A stretch of DNA of 64,000 nucleotides, from positions 26,846-90,845 of the forward strand of contig JACPGP010000014.1 of assembly GCA_016182425.1 (NCBI GenBank). Reading direction: 5' to 3'. The translations under genes were made by a program, and so were the position numbers. Positions 2,390-50,235 of the stretch are shown here, piece by piece (positions within the stretch are counted from its first letter, which is position 1; each line of letters begins with the position of its first letter). The notes beneath the pieces are model-generated. The model saw nothing but the letters and a program-made list of their open reading frames with translations. It ran no database searches and had not been told where the DNA came from. The DNA is from Candidatus Levyibacteriota bacterium (GTDB taxonomy: Bacteria > Patescibacteriota > Microgenomatia > Levybacterales > UBA12049).

Positions 2390-2933
2390 AATTATAAGGA
2401 GAACTAATGCTGTTTTTTTAGAATTTGAGGTTTTAATTCTTCATTGTGTTGGATATATCCCATCTCATCACATTAGACGTTTTTTTTATCGTCTGGCAGG
2501 AGTAAAAATTGGTAAAGGTTCTACAGTTCACACTGGCGCACGATTCTATAACCCAAAGAACATAAGTATCGGAAACGATTCTATTATTGGAGAGGGGGCA
2601 GTTTTAGATGGGAGAGCAAGACTTGCTATTGGCGATCATGTGGATATTGCAACTGATGTAATGATCTATAACTGCGAGCATGATGTAAATAGTTCCGATT
2701 TTGCTCCAGTTTGTGGCCATGTTATTATTGAGGACTATGTATTTATTGGTCCGCGAGTAATTATTTTACCTGGGGTAGTAATTGGTAAAGGAGCTGTTGT
2801 TGCAGCAGGTGCAGTGGTCACAAAAAATGTTGACGCATTCACAATTGTTGGGGGTGTGCCTGCAAAAGTTATCGGAGAAAGAAAAGTAAAAGATTTACAT
2901 TACAAACTTGGACGAGCTGCCTGGTTTCGATAG
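2379..2933 (+). CDS. left-handed beta-helix (hexapeptide) O-acetyltransferase, WcaF-like
   Basis: Hexapeptide repeats: IGKGSTV, IGNDSIIGEGAVL, IGPRVIILPGVVIGKGAVVAAGAVV. Confidence 0.75.
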   Translation: MLNKIIRRTNAVFLEFEVLILHCVGYIPSHHIRRFFYRLAGVKIGKGSTVHTGARFYNPKNISIGNDSIIGEGAVLDGRARLAIGDHVDIATDVMIYNCEHDVNSSDFAPVCGHVIIEDYVFIGPRVIILPGVVIGKGAVVAAGAVVTKNVDAFTIVGGVPAKVIGERKVKDLHYKLGRAAWFR

Positions 2934-2940
2934 GTGAGAT

Positions 2941-3822
2941 ATGGTTGTATTATCAGTCATTATTCTAAATTATAATACTAAAGATTTAACAAAACAATGT
3001 CTAACATCGCTAGAAAATCATTATCGGGAAGAATTAAGAAAAGGAGTATTTGAAATTATTGTTGTTGATAATGCATCGACCGATACTTCGGCATCGGTAA
3101 TCTCAAATCTCAAATCTCAAATCTCAAATCTTACATTGATCAAAAATAAAGAAAATGTTGGATTTTCAAAAGGAAATAATATAGGAGCAAAAAATGCAAA
3201 AGGGAGATATTTATTGTTTTTAAATTCCGATACCGAAGTAGGAGATAATGGCTTACTTAGTGCGGTTTCATATGTAGAAGAACATAAAGATATTGGTGTT
3301 TTGGGCGCCAAATTACGTAACGCGGATGGTTTTGATCAGGCTTCTACCGGAAAATTTTATACCATAGGGAACGTTTTTTTAATGCTTTTTTTGGGTGAGC
3401 GATTCGGTTTATTACGCACCAGTCCAAAAACAATATCTGAAGTAGACTGGGTGAGTGGGGCGGCGCTATTGATAAGAAAAAAATTGTTTGATCAGCTTGG
3501 TGGGTTTGATGATCATTTTTTTATGTATATGGAAGATATGGAGCTTTGCTATCGCGTCAAAAAAATTAGCTATCAGGTTGTTTTTTATCCATACACAGTT
3601 ATTTATCATAAGGAGCTAGGCAGCTCGAATAGGGGTTTTGCAATTGCACATATTTATAAAGGACTTCTTTACTTTTACAAGAAACATATGAATTATATTC
3701 AGTATGTAATAGTTAAGATGTTGCTTATTACAAAAGCCTATGTCGCTATTGCTATTGGCATCTTTACTAATAATACATATTTAAGATCAACGTATAGACA
3801 AGCTCTGGCTTTTTCGCTATGA
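2941..3822 (+). CDS. GT2 glycosyltransferase
   Basis: SVIILNYNT...VVDNASTD...GFSKGNNIG...FLNSD...MEDMELCYR. Confidence 0.8.
   Translation: MVVLSVIILNYNTKDLTKQCLTSLENHYREELRKGVFEIIVVDNASTDTSASVISNLKSQISNLTLIKNKENVGFSKGNNIGAKNAKGRYLLFLNSDTEVGDNGLLSAVSYVEEHKDIGVLGAKLRNADGFDQASTGKFYTIGNVFLMLFLGERFGLLRTSPKTISEVDWVSGAALLIRKKLFDQLGGFDDHFFMYMEDMELCYRVKKISYQVVFYPYTVIYHKELGSSNRGFAIAHIYKGLLYFYKKHMNYIQYVIVKMLLITKAYVAIAIGIFTNNTYLRSTYRQALAFSL
3099..3131 (+). repeat. tandem heptamer AATCTCA x ~4.7, in-frame
   Basis: Direct reading gives aatctca at 3099, 3106, 3113 and 3120, plus aatct. It encodes ISNLKSQISNL. Confidence 0.95.
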
Positions 3823-6800
3823 AAATATTCCGTTTTGTTACCGATAATATCTTGTTTATTCTGACGCTTTTTCTGCTAACGTTTATTCCGTTATATCCTA
3901 AATTGCCCCTCTTAGATGTCAGAAACACATGGGTTTATATTCGAGCAGAAGATTTCGTCGTTGTTTTTGTTCTTTTAGTTTGGTTGCTGCTTCTTATTAG
4001 AAAAAAAATAACATTAAGAACCCCTTTGACATTTCCTATTATTCTTTTTTGGATTATCGGGGCAATTGCCACTATTCATGGTGTACTTTTAATATTTCCA
4101 GTCATAGCAGGGTCTGGTGTCCATACAAATGTAGCATTCTTAAGTTTTTTGCGCAGAATTGAGTATGTAAGTTTATTCTTTGTTGCTTATTCCGGGATAA
4201 AAGATAAACGATCGATTCCTTATGTTGTCGCGGTGATGACGGGGACTCTTATTTTGATTATCGCATATGGCTTTGGGCAAAAATTTTATGGATTCCCCGC
4301 CTATTTGACAATGAATGAAGAATTCGCGAAGGGAATACCCATACGGCTTTCTGAGTTGTCGCGGGTTCCCTCCACTTTTGCCGGCCATTACGATCTGGCC
4401 GCGTATTTGGTTTTGGTGATTCCTATCTTAACAAGCATGATATTCGGATTTAAAAACTGGTTTGTAAAGTTACCTCTTTTGGTAACAATTTCTTTTGGGT
4501 TTGTTCTTCTTTTTATGACGGTATCTCGAGTGTCGTTTTTTGTTCTTTTAATTTCTATGATTTTGGTATTTCTTTTTCAAAAAAAGAGATTGATTATTCT
4601 TTTTCTTTTTATGATAGCCTTCGTATTTTTAAGTTTTTCTTCAAGTCTTCTGCAGCGTTTTGGAGATACGGTTAAAGAGGTTGATGTATTGGTTGACGCA
4701 CAGACAGGAGAGGCAATTGGACATGTAAAAGATATTGAGGCTTCCTATTTTAAGGATAAAATCATTAAAAGAAAATTCGCTCAGACCAAAGACGAAATTA
4801 TCAGGCCGATAGAAGATGAAAAACAGGCTACTTCTTCTGCAAAGGTTCTTTTTACGCAGCTTCCACCGAAAGTGGCGCTTGTTGTCGAATCGAATGCTCC
4901 CACCGGAGAAAATCTGCCACAAGGTACCAGCTATATAAATCTGCCGCTTTCGCCTGTCACCAAAAAATTGGGACAGTTTTTTTACCAAAAATCAAAAGAT
5001 GACAAAACAGCGGAATCTTCTGAAATATTTAGTATTCACGGAGATTTTTTGGTAAAAAAGGCAGTAGCCTATGATCTTTCGTTTACCACCAGATTTCAGG
5101 GGGAATGGCCGCAGGCAATAGATGCGTTTAAGAGAAACATTTTATTTGGAAGCGGATACTCATCGGTTGGACTTGCTGTTGATAACAACTATCTGCGTAT
5201 TTTGGGAGAAGTAGGATTGTTGGGTTTTTCTTCTTTTTTGGCGATATTTTTATTTGCTGGAATTTACATAAAGAAAGTATTACCCGAGGTTGATTCTTTG
5301 GTGGTTAAAAGTTTTATTTTGGGCATGGCTGCAGGTGTCGTTGGTTTAGCCCTAAACGCAGTATTTATTGATGTTTTTGAGGCGTCGAAAATTGCTTTTT
5401 TCCTCTGGCTTTTGCTGGGAGTTACTATTGGAGTACTACATTTGTACCAAAAGAGCGATTTAGATTTTTATAGAGAGTGTAAAAAAGTGACAACCTCTTC
5501 CTCTGCAATTGCTATCTACTTATTTATTATTACAGTTGTAGTATTTTTACCTATTTCTAATTATTTTTTTGTTGGTGATGATTTTACTTGGTTTCGATGG
5601 ATTGCCGATTGCAATATCGGAAATTCCAATGTGCAAGAATGTCCATCAATAACGACCAGAATTATTAGCTATTTCACAGACGCGAATGGGTTTTTTTATC
5701 GGCCGGGAACAAAAGTGTATTTTTTACTGATGTACTCGGGTTTTTGGCTTAATCAAACGTTATATCATATGGTTTCTGTTTTTCTCCATTTTATTGTAGC
5801 AATGCTTCTTTTTTTGATTGCCAAGAAGGTTTTGAGAGATTCTTTTATATCTGCTCTTTCGGCTTTTTTATTTCTTATTTTAAGCGGATATTTCGAAGCG
5901 GTTTTTTGGATTTCTTCAACTGGTTTTCTCTTTAATGCGGTGTTTGCGCTTCTTAGTTTGCTTTTCTTTATTTTGTGGAAAGAAAAAAATAAAATTGTTT
6001 ATTTTATTTTTTGTTTATTCTCTATCATTTTCAGTCTTTTGTTTCATGAGCTGGGAGTAATCACTCCTCTTTTTATCATCCTTTATGAATATGTAACCGA
6101 AGAAAAGTTTATATTCAGGATAGCTTTTAGAGGTGTTTACTACCTAATATTATTTTTCCCTATCCTTCCATATCTGGCTTTACGCTTTTTTGCCCAGAGT
6201 CATTGGTTTAGCGGTGATTACAGTTATAATTTATTAAAGCTTCCTTACAATATTGTTGGTAATGCCATTGGGTATATTATGCTTGCTTTTTTTGGCCCCG
6301 CCTCTTTTCCCATTTATCAGTCGTTGCGGAGTTTTTCTAGAGAGCATATAGTATTTAGCGGAGTTGTTTCCTTGATAATGCTTTATCTAGCCGTTAAGGC
6401 ATATAGAATAATCATTTGGAAAATGACTAAAGATGAGCAAAAAATTGTTATTTTCGGTTCTTTGTTTTTCTTGATAGCGCTTCTGCCATTTTTAGGCTTG
6501 GGAAATATCACTTCTCGATATAGTTATTTATCGTCTATAGGATTTGTGATTCTTTTTTCATTTTTTCTTAAAAAATTATATTTTTATTTACGAAGCAACG
6601 GTCAATACATTGCGCTTTTGAGTGTTATAATGATAGGAAGCATATTTTTTCTTATCCATGTCATTCAGCTGCAAAAAATTCATGAAGATTGGCATGGAGC
6701 AGGTGAGAAAGCGAAGAGATTTTTTATATCAATGGACAGAGTATACATTAATGAGTGGACAAAGGAACATTTACAGTTTTATTTTGTTAATGTGCCAATT

Positions 6801-7001: not shown

Positions 7002-8473
7002 AAAAGAGAGAGTTTTTTTTGTTAACGCTGGTTATTTTGGGCGCGTTTGCTGTTAGATTATATCGGTTTAACGGCCCGGTTGCAGATTGGCATTCATGGA
7101 GACAATCCGATACTGCTGCGGTTTCTCGGAATTTTTTAAAATTTGGTTTTGATGTGTTGCATCCCAGATTTGATGACTTATCAAATGGCGTTTCTCTTTT
7201 AGATAATCCACAAGGGTACAGATTTGTCGAGTTTCCATTCTATAATGTTTTGCAGGCGGGGTTATTTCGTCTTTTTGATCGTTTTACAATCGAGCAGTGG
7301 GGACGGCTGGTCACAAACATTTCGGCAGTTATTGGCATTATTTTTCTTTATTTGCTGGTTAGACTGCATGTTTCCTGGCAAGCAGCGATATTTGCGGCGC
7401 TTTTCTATGCAGTTGTTCCTTATAATGTTTACTATGGAAGAGTGATCTTACCGGATCAGTTGATGACAAGCATGATGCTTGGCTCCATATATTTTTTTGA
7501 CGTCTGGATAGAAAAAAAATATAAATTACTCCTTACACTTTCGGCTGTTTTTTTTGCCACAGCTCTTTTAATAAAACCATACGTTTTATTTTTTGGACTG
7601 TCTATTTTTTACCTGATATACAGGAAATATGGACTAGATTTTGTAAAGAAAAAAGAACTGTGGTTTTTTCTTATATTATCTTTTCTCCCCTTTTTTTTAT
7701 GGAGATGGTGGATGCAGCATTACCCGGAGGGCATACCCCGTAACGATTGGTTATATAACGGAAACGAGATTCGATTTAAGATTGCATTTTTCTGGTGGAT
7801 TTTTGCCGAAAGAATTGCCAAAATTATGCTTGGATACTGGGGTTTGCCAATTGTTATTTTGGGAATCTTGGGTAAAGTAAAAGAGAAAGAAGGATTCTTT
7901 TTTTTAACATTTATCATCTCGTCCCTGGCATATTTGACAGTGTTTGCTACTGGAAATGTGCAACATGAGTATTATCAAATACTTATTGTTCCCACGCTGG
8001 CAATATTTTTTGGAAAAGGTGTTGACGTTTTTTTATCTCTGTCTCAAAAAGAATTTAGCCGTACTATTGGAATAGCTGCGCTGGGCGGGTGTTTTGGTTT
8101 TATGCTTATTTTTAGTTGGCGGGAGATTAGAGCATATTATAATATCAATCACCCGGAAATTATTGAAGCTGGCCGTGCCATAGATAAGCTTACTCCAAAA
8201 GACGCAAAGATTATCGCTATTTATAATGGTGATACAACGTTTCTCTACCATACCAATCGTCAAGGTTGGCCAGTATGGGAAAGACCGCTCTATGAATTTA
8301 TAAAGGCCGGGGCAGGCTACATTACGTTTGTGAATCCTACAAAAGATGAATTAGGTTTTGGAAAACATTACACTACTCTTGCCAGAACTGAAAAGTATGT
8401 TATATTTGATTTAACAAGGCCTCTCTATTTTCCGCCACTGCACGAAGTTGAAGCGTCACAATCGGCAAAATAA
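6998..8473 (+). CDS. GT-C family membrane glycosyltransferase (ArnT/PMT-like)
   Basis: About 10+ TM helices, with the first-loop motif WHSWRQSDTAAVSRNF. Confidence 0.6.
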   Translation: MKKREFFLLTLVILGAFAVRLYRFNGPVADWHSWRQSDTAAVSRNFLKFGFDVLHPRFDDLSNGVSLLDNPQGYRFVEFPFYNVLQAGLFRLFDRFTIEQWGRLVTNISAVIGIIFLYLLVRLHVSWQAAIFAALFYAVVPYNVYYGRVILPDQLMTSMMLGSIYFFDVWIEKKYKLLLTLSAVFFATALLIKPYVLFFGLSIFYLIYRKYGLDFVKKKELWFFLILSFLPFFLWRWWMQHYPEGIPRNDWLYNGNEIRFKIAFFWWIFAERIAKIMLGYWGLPIVILGILGKVKEKEGFFFLTFIISSLAYLTVFATGNVQHEYYQILIVPTLAIFFGKGVDVFLSLSQKEFSRTIGIAALGGCFGFMLIFSWREIRAYYNINHPEIIEAGRAIDKLTPKDAKIIAIYNGDTTFLYHTNRQGWPVWERPLYEFIKAGAGYITFVNPTKDELGFGKHYTTLARTEKYVIFDLTRPLYFPPLHEVEASQSAK

Positions 8474-8476
8474 TGT

Positions 8477-9664
8477 ATGAAAATACTTATTGTTTCCTCT
8501 TTTCTTCCATATCCTCTTTTTTCTGGTGGACATGTCAGGCTTTTTAATCTTATTAAGGAGTTAGCGACAAAACATGAATTGACTATTGTTTGTGAAAAGA
8601 GATCACACCAAACAGATGCAGATATTATGGCAGTTAAGAGGTACTGCCAAACGCTCATTACCGTTGAGAGAAAGAAGCAGTGGTCGTTTCCCAATGTTTT
8701 TAGGACTGGTTTTTCTCCATTTCCATTTCTTCTGGTTGGACACACGAATGATGAAATGAGGCGAGCTATTATTAGACTTATTAATGAAAAATCATTTGAT
8801 CTTATTCATGTGGAAACGTTTTATGTCATGCAGAATATTCCAGACACCCCTCTCCCTGTTGTCTTAGTAGAACACAACATTGAGTATCTAGTATATAAAC
8901 GATATACAAAGATGGCTCCTTTTTTGTTTAGGCCCTTATTATATTTTGATGTTGCGAAACTTAAATATTGGGAAGAGATTTATTGGAGCAAGGCGACAAA
9001 ATTAGTAGCAGTATCGGAGGAAGAAAAAAAATTAATGAATAGAGAAGATGTGGAAGTCGTGTCAAATGGTGTAGATATACAAAAATTCAGAATTCAGAAT
9101 TCAGAATTCAGAATTAATAAAAAGGAGAAAAGAATATTATTCATTGGGGATTTTAAATGGTTACAGAATCGGGATGCTGTAGGGTGGATACTAAACGAAA
9201 TTTGGCCGGAAATAAAATCAAAAATAGAAGCGAAACTGTGGATTGTGGGGAAGGATATTCCTGATTCAATTAAAAAATTGTCGAGTGACCAAAATGTTAT
9301 TTTTGATGAAAATGCGCCAAAAGAGACTGCTGAAATTTTTGCCAAGGCAGATGTGCTTCTGGCCCCGATTAGAGTTGGGGGCGGAACGAGTTATAAAATA
9401 TTAGAAGCAATGGCAAGCGGTGTTCCTGTTATTACAACACCATTGGGTAGAGAGGGGATTGATGCAAAGGACAGGCAAGAAATTTTGCTGGCAGAGGATA
9501 CAGATGAATTTGTTAAAAATATTGTCGATATTTTTGATAATGAAAAACTCTATAAAAAAATCGCGCATAATTCCAGAAAACTAATTGAGGAAAAATATGA
9601 TTGGAAAATAATTGTAAAAAAACTTGAAGATGTTTATCGAGATGCAATTACTACGTATGATTAA
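8477..9664 (+). CDS. GT4 glycosyltransferase
   Basis: FLPYPLFSGGHVR N-terminus, NGVD linker, and GGGTSYKILEAMASGVPVITT in the C-domain. Confidence 0.8.
   Translation: MKILIVSSFLPYPLFSGGHVRLFNLIKELATKHELTIVCEKRSHQTDADIMAVKRYCQTLITVERKKQWSFPNVFRTGFSPFPFLLVGHTNDEMRRAIIRLINEKSFDLIHVETFYVMQNIPDTPLPVVLVEHNIEYLVYKRYTKMAPFLFRPLLYFDVAKLKYWEEIYWSKATKLVAVSEEEKKLMNREDVEVVSNGVDIQKFRIQNSEFRINKKEKRILFIGDFKWLQNRDAVGWILNEIWPEIKSKIEAKLWIVGKDIPDSIKKLSSDQNVIFDENAPKETAEIFAKADVLLAPIRVGGGTSYKILEAMASGVPVITTPLGREGIDAKDRQEILLAEDTDEFVKNIVDIFDNEKLYKKIAHNSRKLIEEKYDWKIIVKKLEDVYRDAITTYD
9084..9115 (+). repeat. tandem heptamer AATTCAG x ~4.6, in-frame
   Basis: Direct reading gives aattcag at 9084, 9091, 9098 and 9105, plus aatt. 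It encodes FRIQNSEFRI. Confidence 0.95.
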
Positions 9665-11622: not shown

Positions 11623-12688
11623 AGTGAATAAATGGGGAGGGGCAGAGAGAGTATTACTTTCGCTGCATGAGATTTTTCCGCAAGCTCCGCTGTATACTTC
11701 AGTATACAACCCGATGAAGACACCATGGGCAAATGTATTTGTTTTAAAGACATCATTTCTTCAAAAATTTCCTTACGCGTCGTCTGTTCATGAATTATTG
11801 CCAGTGTTTATGCCGCTGGCCTTTGAGAGCTTTTCGTTTGATCAGTATGATCTTGTTATTTCGGTAACATCAGAAGCAGCAAAAGGGATTATTACAAAAC
11901 CAGGCACGCTTCATATTTGCTATTGTCTTACTCCTACTCGTTACTTATGGAGCGGGTATGAAGAATATTTTAAAAATCCAGTTAATCGATTTTTTACACA
12001 GCCAGCAGTGTCGTATCTTCGTAAATGGGATTATATTGCAGCACAACGTCCAGATGCGTATATTGCTATTTCGAAAGAGGTACAAAAAAGAATTAAAAAA
12101 TATTATGGAAGAGAATCAGAAGTAGTGTATCCTCCAGTTGATCTGCCCAGTGTCAAGTATCAAGTGTCAAGTATCAAGGGAAAGGAGGCTGGTTTTTTTC
12201 TTGTTGTTTCTCGGCTTGTGCCTTATAAGCGAATTGATATCGCCATTAAGGCATGTAATAGATTGCAGTTGCCGCTTAAAATTATAGGTACTGGATCGGA
12301 AGAAGGGAGACTCAAAAGCATTGCTGGTCAAACAATCGAGTTCTTGGGTAACTTGACTGATAGTGAGCTGGTAGGGTATTATAAAGCTTGTCGTGCGCTC
12401 ATTTTTCCCGGCCTGGAGGATTTTGGGGTTGTCGTCGCAGAAGCCCAGAAGTTTGGTAGACCAGTAATTGCGTTTTATGGGGGAGGAGCGCGTGAAATTG
12501 TTAAGGAGCAAAAGACAGGATTATTCTTTTATCCTCAGACAACAGAAGCACTCGTAAGTACACTTATTATGTTTGAGAAAAAAAGGTTTTCTTCTGCGAT
12601 TTGTGCCGATAATGCGGAAAGATTTTCGTTAGCGTTATTTAAGAAGACGTTTATGTCATTGATAGAAAAATTAAAGGATCACGTTTAA
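11597..12688 (+). CDS. GT4 glycosyltransferase
   Basis: KWGGAERVLLSL N-terminus, YPPVD linker, and FPGLEDFGVVVAEAQKFGRPVIA. Confidence 0.75.
   Translation: MKVALVYDRVNKWGGAERVLLSLHEIFPQAPLYTSVYNPMKTPWANVFVLKTSFLQKFPYASSVHELLPVFMPLAFESFSFDQYDLVISVTSEAAKGIITKPGTLHICYCLTPTRYLWSGYEEYFKNPVNRFFTQPAVSYLRKWDYIAAQRPDAYIAISKEVQKRIKKYYGRESEVVYPPVDLPSVKYQVSSIKGKEAGFFLVVSRLVPYKRIDIAIKACNRLQLPLKIIGTGSEEGRLKSIAGQTIEFLGNLTDSELVGYYKACRALIFPGLEDFGVVVAEAQKFGRPVIAFYGGGAREIVKEQKTGLFFYPQTTEALVSTLIMFEKKRFSSAICADNAERFSLALFKKTFMSLIEKLKDHV
12149..12179 (+). repeat. tandem heptamers AGTGTCA/AGTATCA alternating (14 bp x ~2.2), in-frame
   Basis: Direct reading gives agtgtca agtatca agtgtca agtatca agg. It encodes SVKYQVSSIK. 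Confidence 0.95.
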
Positions 12689-49984: not shown

Positions 49985-50010
49985 TCTATTTTTGCAGATA
50001 TGAGTTTACT

Positions 50011-50039
50011 TTGTCAATCAGAAAAAAATATGCTAAGAT
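50011..50039 (+). promoter_or_regulatory. sigma70-like promoter of the tRNA locus
   Basis: TTGTCA (50011-16), a 17-nt spacer, then TAAGAT (50034-39). It lies 14 nt before the outer tRNA 5' end. Confidence 0.55.
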
Positions 50040-50076
50040 GCAGAAAAGAGTTTGGGCGCATAGCTCAGTTGGTAGA

Positions 50077-50179
50077 CCCGCCTGCACTGGCCGATTGGCT
50101 CAGTTGGTTAGAGCGCTTCATTCACATTGAAGAGGTCGGAGGTTCGAATCCTCCATCGGCCACAGTTACGGCGGGCAGG
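50077..50179 (+). other. 103-nt insertion in the outer tRNA: GC clamp CCCGCC...GGCGGG flanking the inner tRNA
   Basis: CCCGCC (50077-82) is complementary to GGCGGG (50170-75), and ACT (50086-88) to AGT (50164-66). The 3' flank is shared with ileS 46341-46378. Confidence 0.8.
50089..50162 (+). tRNA. tRNA-Val(CAC), intact, nested in the insertion
   Basis: GGCCGAT/ATCGGCC acceptor, GCTC-AGTTGGTTA-GAGC D-arm, CTTCA-TTCACAT-TGAAG anticodon arm, AGGTC variable loop, GGAGG-TTCGAAT-CCTCC T-arm, A73. No CCA is encoded. Confidence 0.9.
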
Positions 50180-50235
50180 GCGTTGCATTCACATTGCAAA
50201 GGTCCCAAGTTCAAATCTTGGTGCGCCCACAAATT

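Follow-up and report, generated by a model that had tools for sequence, protein, structure and literature searches.

A hairpin-ended element carrying a complete tRNA-Val(CAC) interrupts, and probably replaces, a resident tRNA-Val(CAC) gene in Candidatus Levybacteria

We analyzed a 64,000-nucleotide stretch from the genome of a Candidatus Levyibacteriota bacterium, tiny and of groundwater type (contig JACPGP010000014.1, the whole stretch being referred to as the window) in which a complete tRNA-Val(CAC) gene lies nested within a second gene of the same type. The outer gene is interrupted in its D stem by a 103-nt element with GC-rich, hairpin-forming ends, and the inner gene is the cargo of this element. 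The locus is composed of the following features:

50011-50039, plus strand: promoter-like site TTGTCA-17-TAAGAT, the sole plus-strand promoter-like site nearby
50054-50076, plus strand: 5' fragment of the outer tRNA-Val(CAC), 23 nt, nucleotides 1-23, reading GGGCGCATAGCTCAGTTGGTAGA; it holds the acceptor 5' strand, the D-stem 5' strand, the D loop and G22-A23
50077-50179, plus strand: the mobile element (cassette), 103 nt, hairpin-ended, with ends CCCGCCTGCA...GGCGGGCAGG and a complete tRNA-Val(CAC) as cargo
50077-50088, plus strand: 5' terminal motif of the element, CCCGCCTGCA (family consensus CCCGCCTGCC), and a 2-nt leader
50089-50162, plus strand: inner (cargo) tRNA-Val(CAC), 74 nt to the discriminator A73, CCA not encoded
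50163-50179, plus strand: trailer CAGTTAC and 3' terminal motif GGCGGGCAGG (motif at 50170-50179)
50180-50229, plus strand: 3' fragment of the outer tRNA-Val(CAC), 50 nt, nucleotides 24-73, reading GCGTTGCATTCACATTGCAAAGGTCCCAAGTTCAAATCTTGGTGCGCCCA; it holds D-stem G24-C25, the anticodon arm, the variable loop, the T arm, the acceptor 3' strand and A73

On the native 64-kb window ARAGORN calls a single tRNA gene, the inner tRNA-Val(cac) at 50089-50163, which scores 73.1 bits with Rfam. The second Rfam tRNA match is partial (29.5 bits, 50171-50229) and covers the last 9 nt of the element together with the outer 3' part. After deletion of 50077-50179, ARAGORN calls a 73/74-nt tRNA-Val(cac) with 4/4 stems Watson-Crick, and the minimum-free-energy fold of this rejoined outer tRNA is a cloverleaf (-28.3 kcal/mol, z = -3.7, equalled by 0 of 200 shuffles). 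The junction between element and outer gene is unique, as a shift by +1 or -1 base disrupts the D stem. These results bear out a preliminary description of the locus in its segment coordinates (50054-50076, 50077-50179 and 50180-50229, that is 23, 103 and 50 nt), in the clean 73-nt cloverleaf formed by the joined outer halves, in the completeness of the inner tRNA-Val(CAC) and in the presence of one promoter (50011-50039) upstream of the outer gene. The same description placed the inner tRNA on a GC-clamped helix, which the predicted fold of the 176-nt precursor (-73.7 kcal/mol, z = -4.4) largely upholds: CCCGCC 50077-82 is paired with GGCGGG 50170-75, and the outer acceptor, anticodon and T arms form together with the inner acceptor, D and T arms, but the inner anticodon arm takes a different pairing. 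As single-stranded DNA the element folds with z = -3.0. The inner and outer tRNAs are alike at 55 positions and their differences are compensated in every stem. The inner tRNA is probably the functional gene at this locus.

The GC clamp of the window is the conserved terminal motif of a repeated element family. To define this family, metagenomes were scanned with the pattern CCCGCCTGC-N70-100-GGCGGGCAGG, which admits tRNA-sized interiors only. All family counts given here are lower bounds, and because exact element ends were required, the search is also biased to young copies. The scan returned at least 120 loci, about half of them low-GC contigs with genuine-looking elements. When all loci are pooled there are at least 65 distinct insertion sites; the element ends are identical among them, while the interiors are diverse and 30-127 nt long. 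The family ends, 5'-CCCGCCTGCC...GGCGGGCAGG-3', are GC-rich in low-GC host loci and asymmetric (CCCGCCTGCC versus CCTGCCCGCC), with the extended consensus CCCGCCTGCCAWNGCC...GGCWWTGGCGGGCAGG. The first 9 positions of the 5' motif are fixed by the search pattern; at position 10 the window has an A, where C stands in 53 of the 65 listed sites. Together the two ends constitute an imperfect inverted repeat, CCYGCCYGCC, with two possible pairings. One is flush over 10 bp and includes a C·A mismatch and a U·G pair; the other is a perfect CCCGCC/GGCGGG helix, with CAGG left over as a 3' tail. Target-site duplications are absent: once the element is taken out exactly, perfect tRNAs and open reading frames (ORFs) reappear. 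The nucleotide following the terminal CAGG (+1) is a pyrimidine in 57 of the 65 listed sites and the next (+2) is A or C in 54/65; the upstream flank of these sites has no consensus. Rfam analysis of 20 loci with non-tRNA cargo matched these cargos to no family. Viral contigs gave 53 matches, 49 of which lie in high-GC contigs and are probably due to chance; none of the 53 has a tRNA cargo and at most one (L205; loci are designated by L numbers) resembles a family member. Our literature search turned up only group I intron work on tRNA genes of the candidate phyla radiation (CPR), and neither the element nor the tRNA-in-tRNA pattern was found described in it. The hairpin cassette phenomenon is widespread and apparently undescribed.

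At least 23 elements, including that of the window, carry a complete tRNA, and the nested architecture recurs at no fewer than 22 other loci from many projects. Cargo types among the matches listed are Val-CAC, Val-GAC, Thr-CGT, Thr-TGT, Thr-GGT, Arg-CCT, Arg-TCG, Arg-CCG, Gly-CCC, Gln-TTG, Gln-CTG, Glu-CTC, Pro-TGG, Trp-CCA and Leu-CAG. Flanks read by eye place all 23 listed tRNA-carrying elements in a tRNA gene, or remnant of one, of the same type as the cargo. Exact element removal produced an outer tRNA callable by ARAGORN in 13 of these 23 loci, and in 10 of the 13 its anticodon is that of the cargo: Val-CAC (the window), Pro-TGG, Gln-TTG, Gln-CTG, Trp-CCA, Arg-TCG, Arg-CCT, Thr-CGT, Gly-CCC and Leu-CAG. 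The replacement pattern is therefore present in at least nine tRNA types beyond the tRNA-Val of the window, in environmental genomes. At the remaining listed loci, alignment with the cargo shows flanks of the same tRNA type that bear further lesions. Cargo and host are on the same strand wherever the outer tRNA is callable, as expected if the cargo depends on the host promoter. The orientation of the end motifs relative to the cargo tRNA is constant within a tRNA type and differs between types, which points to a small number of ancient capture events. Among the matches listed, insertion points fall mostly in the D arm (21-24) and the anticodon loop (34-38), with single cases in the anticodon stem (30/31) and the T loop (56/57). 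With host context varying in this way, the scarless ends are set by the element alone. In the same set, tRNA-carrying copies were never found outside tRNA genes, while cargo-less copies were, and no element with a non-tRNA cargo was found inside a tRNA gene.

Judged by relatives of its isoleucyl-tRNA synthetase (IleRS), of which the best match is 76% identical, the window belongs to Candidatus Levybacteria / Levyibacteriota (CPR, Microgenomates). A tRNA-Val was called in 37 of 80 related Levybacteria loci (L001-L080); with few exceptions its anticodon is CAC, and it mostly lies about 3.2 kb downstream of ileS. A TTGTCAA promoter box often precedes this syntenic gene at a distance equal to that in the window. 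The uninterrupted syntenic tRNA-Val genes of these relatives represent the empty sites. The syntenic tRNA-Val(CAC) types in L001-L080 (acceptor stems GGAC.., GGAT.., GGGC.., GGCC.. and GCAC..) are distributed patchily with respect to IleRS similarity, which fits repeated replacement of this gene across Levybacteria. In L019 and L027, 5' fragments of older tRNA-Val genes persist upstream of the current gene. Together, the 80 loci and the window hold five copies of the element, namely three tRNA-Val cassettes, one copy in L054 and one in L056. The L054 copy (12274-12316, 43 nt) is cargo-less and lies between the TATAAT box and the rplU start codon, in the 5' untranslated region of a ribosomal protein operon.

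The second of the three cassettes, at 16082-16184 of L071 (MFNO01000037, an independent Rifle metagenome-assembled genome), is identical to that of the window at 101 of 103 positions and occupies the same D-stem site. The outer halves are much less alike (17/23 identical for the 5' half and 26/50 for the 3' half), flanking DNA is about 65% identical and IleRS 65% identical at the amino-acid level. A near-identical element in very different outer genes shows that the cassette moves between genomes. The outer gene of the window is closest to the uninterrupted syntenic gene of L029 (65/73 identical), and its inner tRNA is closest to the GGCC-type tRNA-Val of L058, L076 and L003, a lineage different from that of the outer gene. 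These comparisons argue strongly that the resident gene of the window was invaded from outside. No sign of co-conversion of outer sequence beside the junction, as expected of intron-style homing, was seen between the window and L071 or L029. The outer tRNA of L071 (16054-16081 + 16185-16234) has perfect stems and a Val body, matching Val genes at 56-60 of 72 positions and Thr genes at 48-50 of 72, but its anticodon loop, TTCGTAT, has the anticodon CGT, as in a tRNA-Thr. Its CGT anticodon is either the first lesion of a dead gene or an anticodon change. The third cassette, in L040, is likewise 103 nt long and has the same ends, but its tRNA-Val(CAC) is a different one; it is inserted between outer nucleotides 37/38 in the anticodon loop.

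Inner and outer genes differ in their state of preservation. All 23 listed inner tRNAs are undamaged. The outer genes are decayed or truncated in L007, L019 and L027 (all three at the syntenic locus), L084 and L108, as well as in the wrecked L132; that of L071 is altered in its anticodon, and extra small hairpins are found in the outers of L097, L099, L123, L141, L157, L184 and L200. In L132, what appear to be three tRNA-Thr shells lie one inside the other around positions 1000-1450; this would amount to serial replacement. In L184 (about 2400-3000) a unit made of leader, tRNA-Arg 5' part and 5' arm is present four times and the 3' unit twice; this array is best explained by unequal recombination between inner and outer copies, the other possibility being repeat collapse in assembly. 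The 1.79 Mb of low-GC loci contain 87 callable tRNAs, 23 of them cargos and 64 stand-alone, and in none of the 64 is the gene interrupted by a cargo-less hairpin. A motif search together with a search for any flush GC-rich hairpin of 14-70 nt in intact tRNAs gave only artefacts at tRNA 3' ends. Decay is thus asymmetric, and the outer genes are dispensable. We also observed a second class of mini-hairpins, 15-20 nt long, in the dead outer tRNAs of L141, L117, L184 and L099 (also L097 and L157). They take the forms TCCGCC-NNN-GGCGGA (some with a CAGG tail), TCAGCC-NNN-GGCTGA and the perfect palindrome CCTGCCTGCCGGCAGGCAGG, and none was seen in live tRNAs.

Copies of the element were also found in protein genes. 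The ileS gene of L056 contains a 33-nt copy (12070-12102, minus strand) that is in frame and stop-free, and the encoded LPASARPWQAG lies inside a 22-residue insertion relative to the enzyme of the window. In L134 two copies of 96 nt (1780-1875) and 30 nt (4433-4462) are in frame within one 1124-aa ORF; this contig has 48% GC, so the family may reach beyond CPR bacteria. A 20-nt palindrome within a 304-aa ORF of L071 is likewise read through. Copies in ordinary protein genes, being in frame and without stops, are probably translated. Two further cases first taken as in frame, L115 and L178, were dropped, one as a spurious ORF and the other as a chance match. The family also repeatedly hits genes for an IS91-type Y2 transposase. 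In L113 (reverse strand, 7864-9395) such a gene is cut by two elements, at 8142-8243 (102 nt) and 8658-8758 (101 nt), both of which break the frame or contain stops; L081 is a near-identical copy. L094 has a 103-nt element near the C-terminus of a probable IS91-type gene. A tblastn search of the window and all loci with the restored transposase detected it only in L113, L081 and L179; neither the window nor any of the 80 Levybacteria loci contains it. The IS91-type Y2 gene may be the partner enzyme that moves the elements, and that is hit through local hopping, which we regard as a lead and not as a result.

Taken together, these data make it probable that a 103-bp non-autonomous mobile DNA element destroyed the resident tRNA-Val(CAC) of the window by splitting it between nucleotides 23 and 24 and supplied its replacement. 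This explanation builds on the anatomy of the element, its family, its mobility between genomes, the rule that cargo equals host, the asymmetric decay of outer and inner genes and the read-through in protein genes, all of which the comparisons above establish. Transposition would take place at the DNA level, as a scarless insertion of the element into the resident tRNA gene. The resident promoter (50011-50039) would then transcribe the outer 5' fragment, the arm, the inner tRNA, the second arm and the outer 3' fragment as one RNA, from which RNase P and 3' processing, presumably by RNase Z, would free the inner tRNA. As the inner tRNA has no encoded CCA, CCA must be added to it. It would take over the job of the destroyed gene, the two outer fragments being by-products that will decay, and the host would then depend on the element. 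CPR genomes usually have one gene per tRNA species, and an insertion into a tRNA gene would therefore survive only if its cargo is the matching isoacceptor and reads in the direction of the host promoter. The preliminary description had offered, as one of three hypotheses, a recent tRNA-carrying insertion that brings its own isoacceptor replacement; the 101/103 identity with L071 and the anticodon match in 10 of 13 loci support this hypothesis and extend it well beyond one genome. That description had also read the pristine state of the outer gene as a sign either of a split and religated tRNA or of a very recent insertion, and it is the young insertion that we retain, the outer gene of the window being undecayed because the insertion is young.

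Several observations sit uneasily with this explanation. Selection alone does not account for the confinement of tRNA-carrying copies to tRNA genes. In the Levybacteria loci, a 75-bp tRNA gene within roughly 17 kb of locus accounts for three of the five copies, a concentration that excludes random insertion and calls for targeting linked to the cargo. Such targeting seems to be required and might work through homology of cargo to target, for example by pairing of a single-stranded intermediate with the homologous gene. No transposase was found within about 6 kb of the element of the window, and the IS91-type query had no match in the rest of the window. The L113 transposase gene becomes an intact 442-aa ORF (Pfam Y2_Tnp, Zn_Tnp_IS91) only on exact removal of both elements, and at the same codon (CPSCH|QKR) L179 contains a diverged element of 102 nt with an open frame on either side. 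This doubly cut gene is intron-like, but recent insertions into a gene without host selection would look alike. The in-frame sample from ordinary genes is small, amounting to three to four cases. Several outers with extra hairpins are otherwise clean, and for the pristine outer gene of the window it is the decay of its counterparts elsewhere that suggests a lack of function.

The rival that survives best is removal at the RNA level, in which the hairpin element would be a new type of bacterial intron and the locus would yield two tRNA-Val(CAC) molecules. Two versions can be envisaged. In one, cleavage by a protein endonuclease at the hairpin base is followed by exon joining through an RtcB-type ligase; in the other, RNase P and RNase Z excise the inner tRNA and the outer pieces stay paired or get ligated. 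Exact, scarless excision does restore perfect tRNAs, the transposase ORF of L113 depends on precise loss of both elements with L179 hit at the same codon, outers with two or three hairpins resemble the multi-intron tRNAs of archaea, and the ends are conserved while the cargo diverges with compensatory changes (Gly-CCC elements, L108 and L177). However, splicing would not force every tRNA-hosted element to carry a tRNA with the anticodon of its host. A host repaired at the RNA level would need no cargo and no matching anticodon, and the cargo = host rule consequently counts against restoration. The use of the inner tRNA as a handle for RNase P and RNase Z accounts for the presence of a tRNA cargo but not for its anticodon. 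Moreover, with two working copies either one could decay, yet no inner gene is damaged and well over ten outers are. Cargo-less hairpins are missing from live stand-alone tRNAs, the copies within ordinary protein genes keep the frame and have no stops, as if translated, and a bulge-helix-bulge is impossible, as the exon partners of the intron's GGCA vary by site. We therefore consider RNA-level removal unlikely. The same holds for the hypothesis of the preliminary description that the outer tRNA is split and religated: the outers are dispensable, a matching cargo would be needless and no hairpin occurs in live tRNAs. We view as distinctly unlikely the specific proposal that the elements are protein-dependent introns, in which an endonuclease would read the CCCGCCUGCC/GGCGGGCAGG helix and make a flush cut, with an RtcB-type ligase sealing the exons, in tRNA precursors and in mRNAs such as that of the IS91-type transposase.

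Known types of interruption were considered as well. A group I intron has a catalytic core (P3-P9) of at least about 200 nt, follows an exon-terminal U that pairs with G in P1, and itself ends in G. The insert of the window is 103 nt long, 74 of which are tRNA, no Rfam model other than tRNA reaches its gathering threshold in the window, the last nucleotide of the 5' exon is A (50076) and not U, and the terminal G is part of the family-wide GGCGGGCAGG. The bulge-helix-bulge consists of two 3-nt bulges split by a 4-bp helix, which joins the 5' exon end with the intron 3' end. Intron positions -6 to -3 are always GGCA here and would need UGCC in the 5' exon, where the window has GGUA and the context varies by site; the motif is also absent from the minimum-free-energy fold. 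A scan of 13 proteins within about 6 kb of the locus, a small part of the genome, showed neither a splicing endonuclease nor an RNA ligase. The absence of a bulge-helix-bulge and an insert too short for a group I or II intron had both been pointed out beforehand, rightly. Integrase-mediated integration was rejected in view of the 103-bp length, the lack of an ORF, the unrepeated outer halves and an inner gene that is complete and unlike the outer one. A split or permuted arrangement of the gene was also rejected, the halves being collinear, 103 nt apart and served by one promoter-like site.

Nesting could have arisen in place, through duplication, template switching or unequal recombination around a small hairpin, and not through the arrival of a cassette. 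L184 is the best case for such a local origin, its inner gene being identical to the outer at 72/72 positions including the 9-nt leader and trailer, with the 5' unit present four times and the 3' unit twice; inner and outer are also similar in L109 (63/67), L166 (58/61) and L124 (64/70). In the window, by contrast, the two tRNAs agree at only 55 positions, the outer matching L029 and the inner another lineage, and the same cassette (101/103) resides in two unrelated outer genes. Local rearrangement covers secondary expansion such as that of L184, not the origin of the nested state, for which we find it quite improbable.

A further alternative is that the outer fragments and arms are themselves useful, as a scaffold for processing or stability or as regulatory or decoy RNAs resembling tRNA halves, and are kept by selection. 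The precursor fold is indeed very stable and orderly (-73.7 kcal/mol, z = -4.4) and the arms are conserved across cargo types. Against this, many outers are decayed, truncated or gaining insertions, the varying insertion position (D arm, anticodon stem, anticodon loop, T loop) leaves no common scaffold, and 64 of the 87 tRNAs of the same loci do without any such structure. The probability of this alternative is in our opinion very low.

Finally, an assembly chimera or collapsed repeat, the remaining hypothesis of the preliminary description, has next to no probability: two similar tRNA genes might confuse a short-read assembler, and the L184 array is possibly in part an assembly effect, but the same element at the same site in the independently assembled L071 rules out misassembly, and at least 21 further nested loci share the architecture with exact ends and scarless junctions.

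The genes surrounding the locus are bacterial, in the order ileS, ftsW, rplU, rpmA, parB, lepB (minus strand), tRNA locus, thiamine diphosphokinase and transporter operon. A divergent promoter-like site (TTGACA, 18-nt spacer, AAAAAT; 49988-50017, minus strand) overlaps the -35 region of the tRNA promoter and would drive lepB, so that one compact control region may serve lepB and the tRNA-Val locus in both directions. GC skew is positive in all 2-kb bins of window 1-64000 and the cumulative skew climbs without a turn; a strand composition disparity of like kind is known from another Microgenomates genome (PMC7143001).

If the proposed replacement is correct, the element represents a third strategy of selfish DNA, in which a whole gene is replaced, as against introns and inteins that splice out and integrases that rebuild the tRNA 3' end. 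As the resident gene is destroyed, the host would be unable to lose the element, which amounts to a tRNA-based addiction. Frequent horizontal turnover of tRNA genes in CPR bacteria is implied, with some loci keeping two to three shells of dead genes. At such loci standard tRNA finders report the inner gene only, and gene callers will mis-handle protein genes with related hairpins; the conserved 10-nt ends offer a simple handle for an element census. The cargo appears to set where tRNA-carrying copies end up, and cargo-guided targeting, if true, would be of wider interest. Splicing of the elements, or targeting guided by the cargo, would if demonstrated make the phenomenon categorically new.

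[quoted passage not shown] Classical MITEs make target-site duplications; to our knowledge RPEs and REPs do not. Like RPEs, the hairpin family is short, non-coding and repeated, has hairpin-forming ends, is GC-rich in an AT-rich genome and lacks a transposase of its own, and it is present in intergenic DNA, in RNA genes and, in frame, in protein genes (L056 ileS). As with MITEs, RPEs and REPINs, many unrelated sites (at least 65) share terminal inverted repeats around differing interiors. Unlike RPEs and MITEs, many of its copies carry a complete tRNA, and these only inside a tRNA gene with the same anticodon. Its asymmetric ends also set it apart from RPEs, MITEs and REPINs, its scarless insertion sets it apart from classical MITEs, and no REP-associated tyrosine transposase (RAYT) or other partner was found in the searches described above.

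Phages, integrative and conjugative elements and islands that integrate into tRNA or tmRNA genes resemble the family in that a tRNA gene is targeted, a replacement sequence is brought, which spares the host, and a broken remnant is left beside a working gene. These integrative elements carry a copy of the displaced 3' part of the tRNA, which is swapped through crossover at the att site. In the hairpin family, in contrast, a whole tRNA is nested inside the old gene, and the element is about 100 bp long with no integrase and no direct att repeats; its insertion points also differ, most being in the D arm and anticodon loop. Scarless insertion, hairpin ends and a weak, short target preference are shared with the HUH elements IS200/IS605, IS91 and Helitron. 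Gene capture is typical of such rolling-circle elements, and it is an IS91-type Y2 gene that the hairpin family repeatedly targets. Unlike IS200/IS605 or RAYT-mobilised elements, the family has no fixed tetra- or pentanucleotide target and forms a single hairpin from both ends and not separate subterminal ones; unlike HUH elements in general, none of the listed tRNA-carrying copies is linked to an HUH gene.

Among RNA-level systems the closest are those of archaea, whose non-canonical tRNA introns, transposing introns of Thermoproteales and split and tri-split tRNAs are described by Fujishima et al. 2009 and 2010 (summarised in PMC10714607). The hairpin family shares with archaeal tRNA introns short insertions in the D arm, anticodon loop and T loop, several per gene, as well as related sequences in different tRNA genes and GC-rich helices beside the junctions. 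It differs from them in being bacterial, in having no bulge-helix-bulge and in carrying a replacement tRNA; moreover, the tRNA genes that it interrupts decay, indicating that they are not spliced. The latest survey of tRNA introns in Patescibacteria reported only group I introns, with a few group II introns in other phyla (PMC13011429). The group I introns of that survey occur in the same phylum and the same kind of host gene as the hairpin family and are likewise missed by standard tRNA finders (PMC13011429). Group I introns, however, are a few hundred nucleotides long, with a catalytic core and self-splicing, and interrupt the anticodon loop, whereas the insert of the window is 103 nt, lies in the D stem and has no Rfam intron match. 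What sets the family apart from palindromic selfish DNA, HUH-type elements and integrative elements alike is that it carries a complete copy of its own target gene, nested in that target, across many tRNA types.

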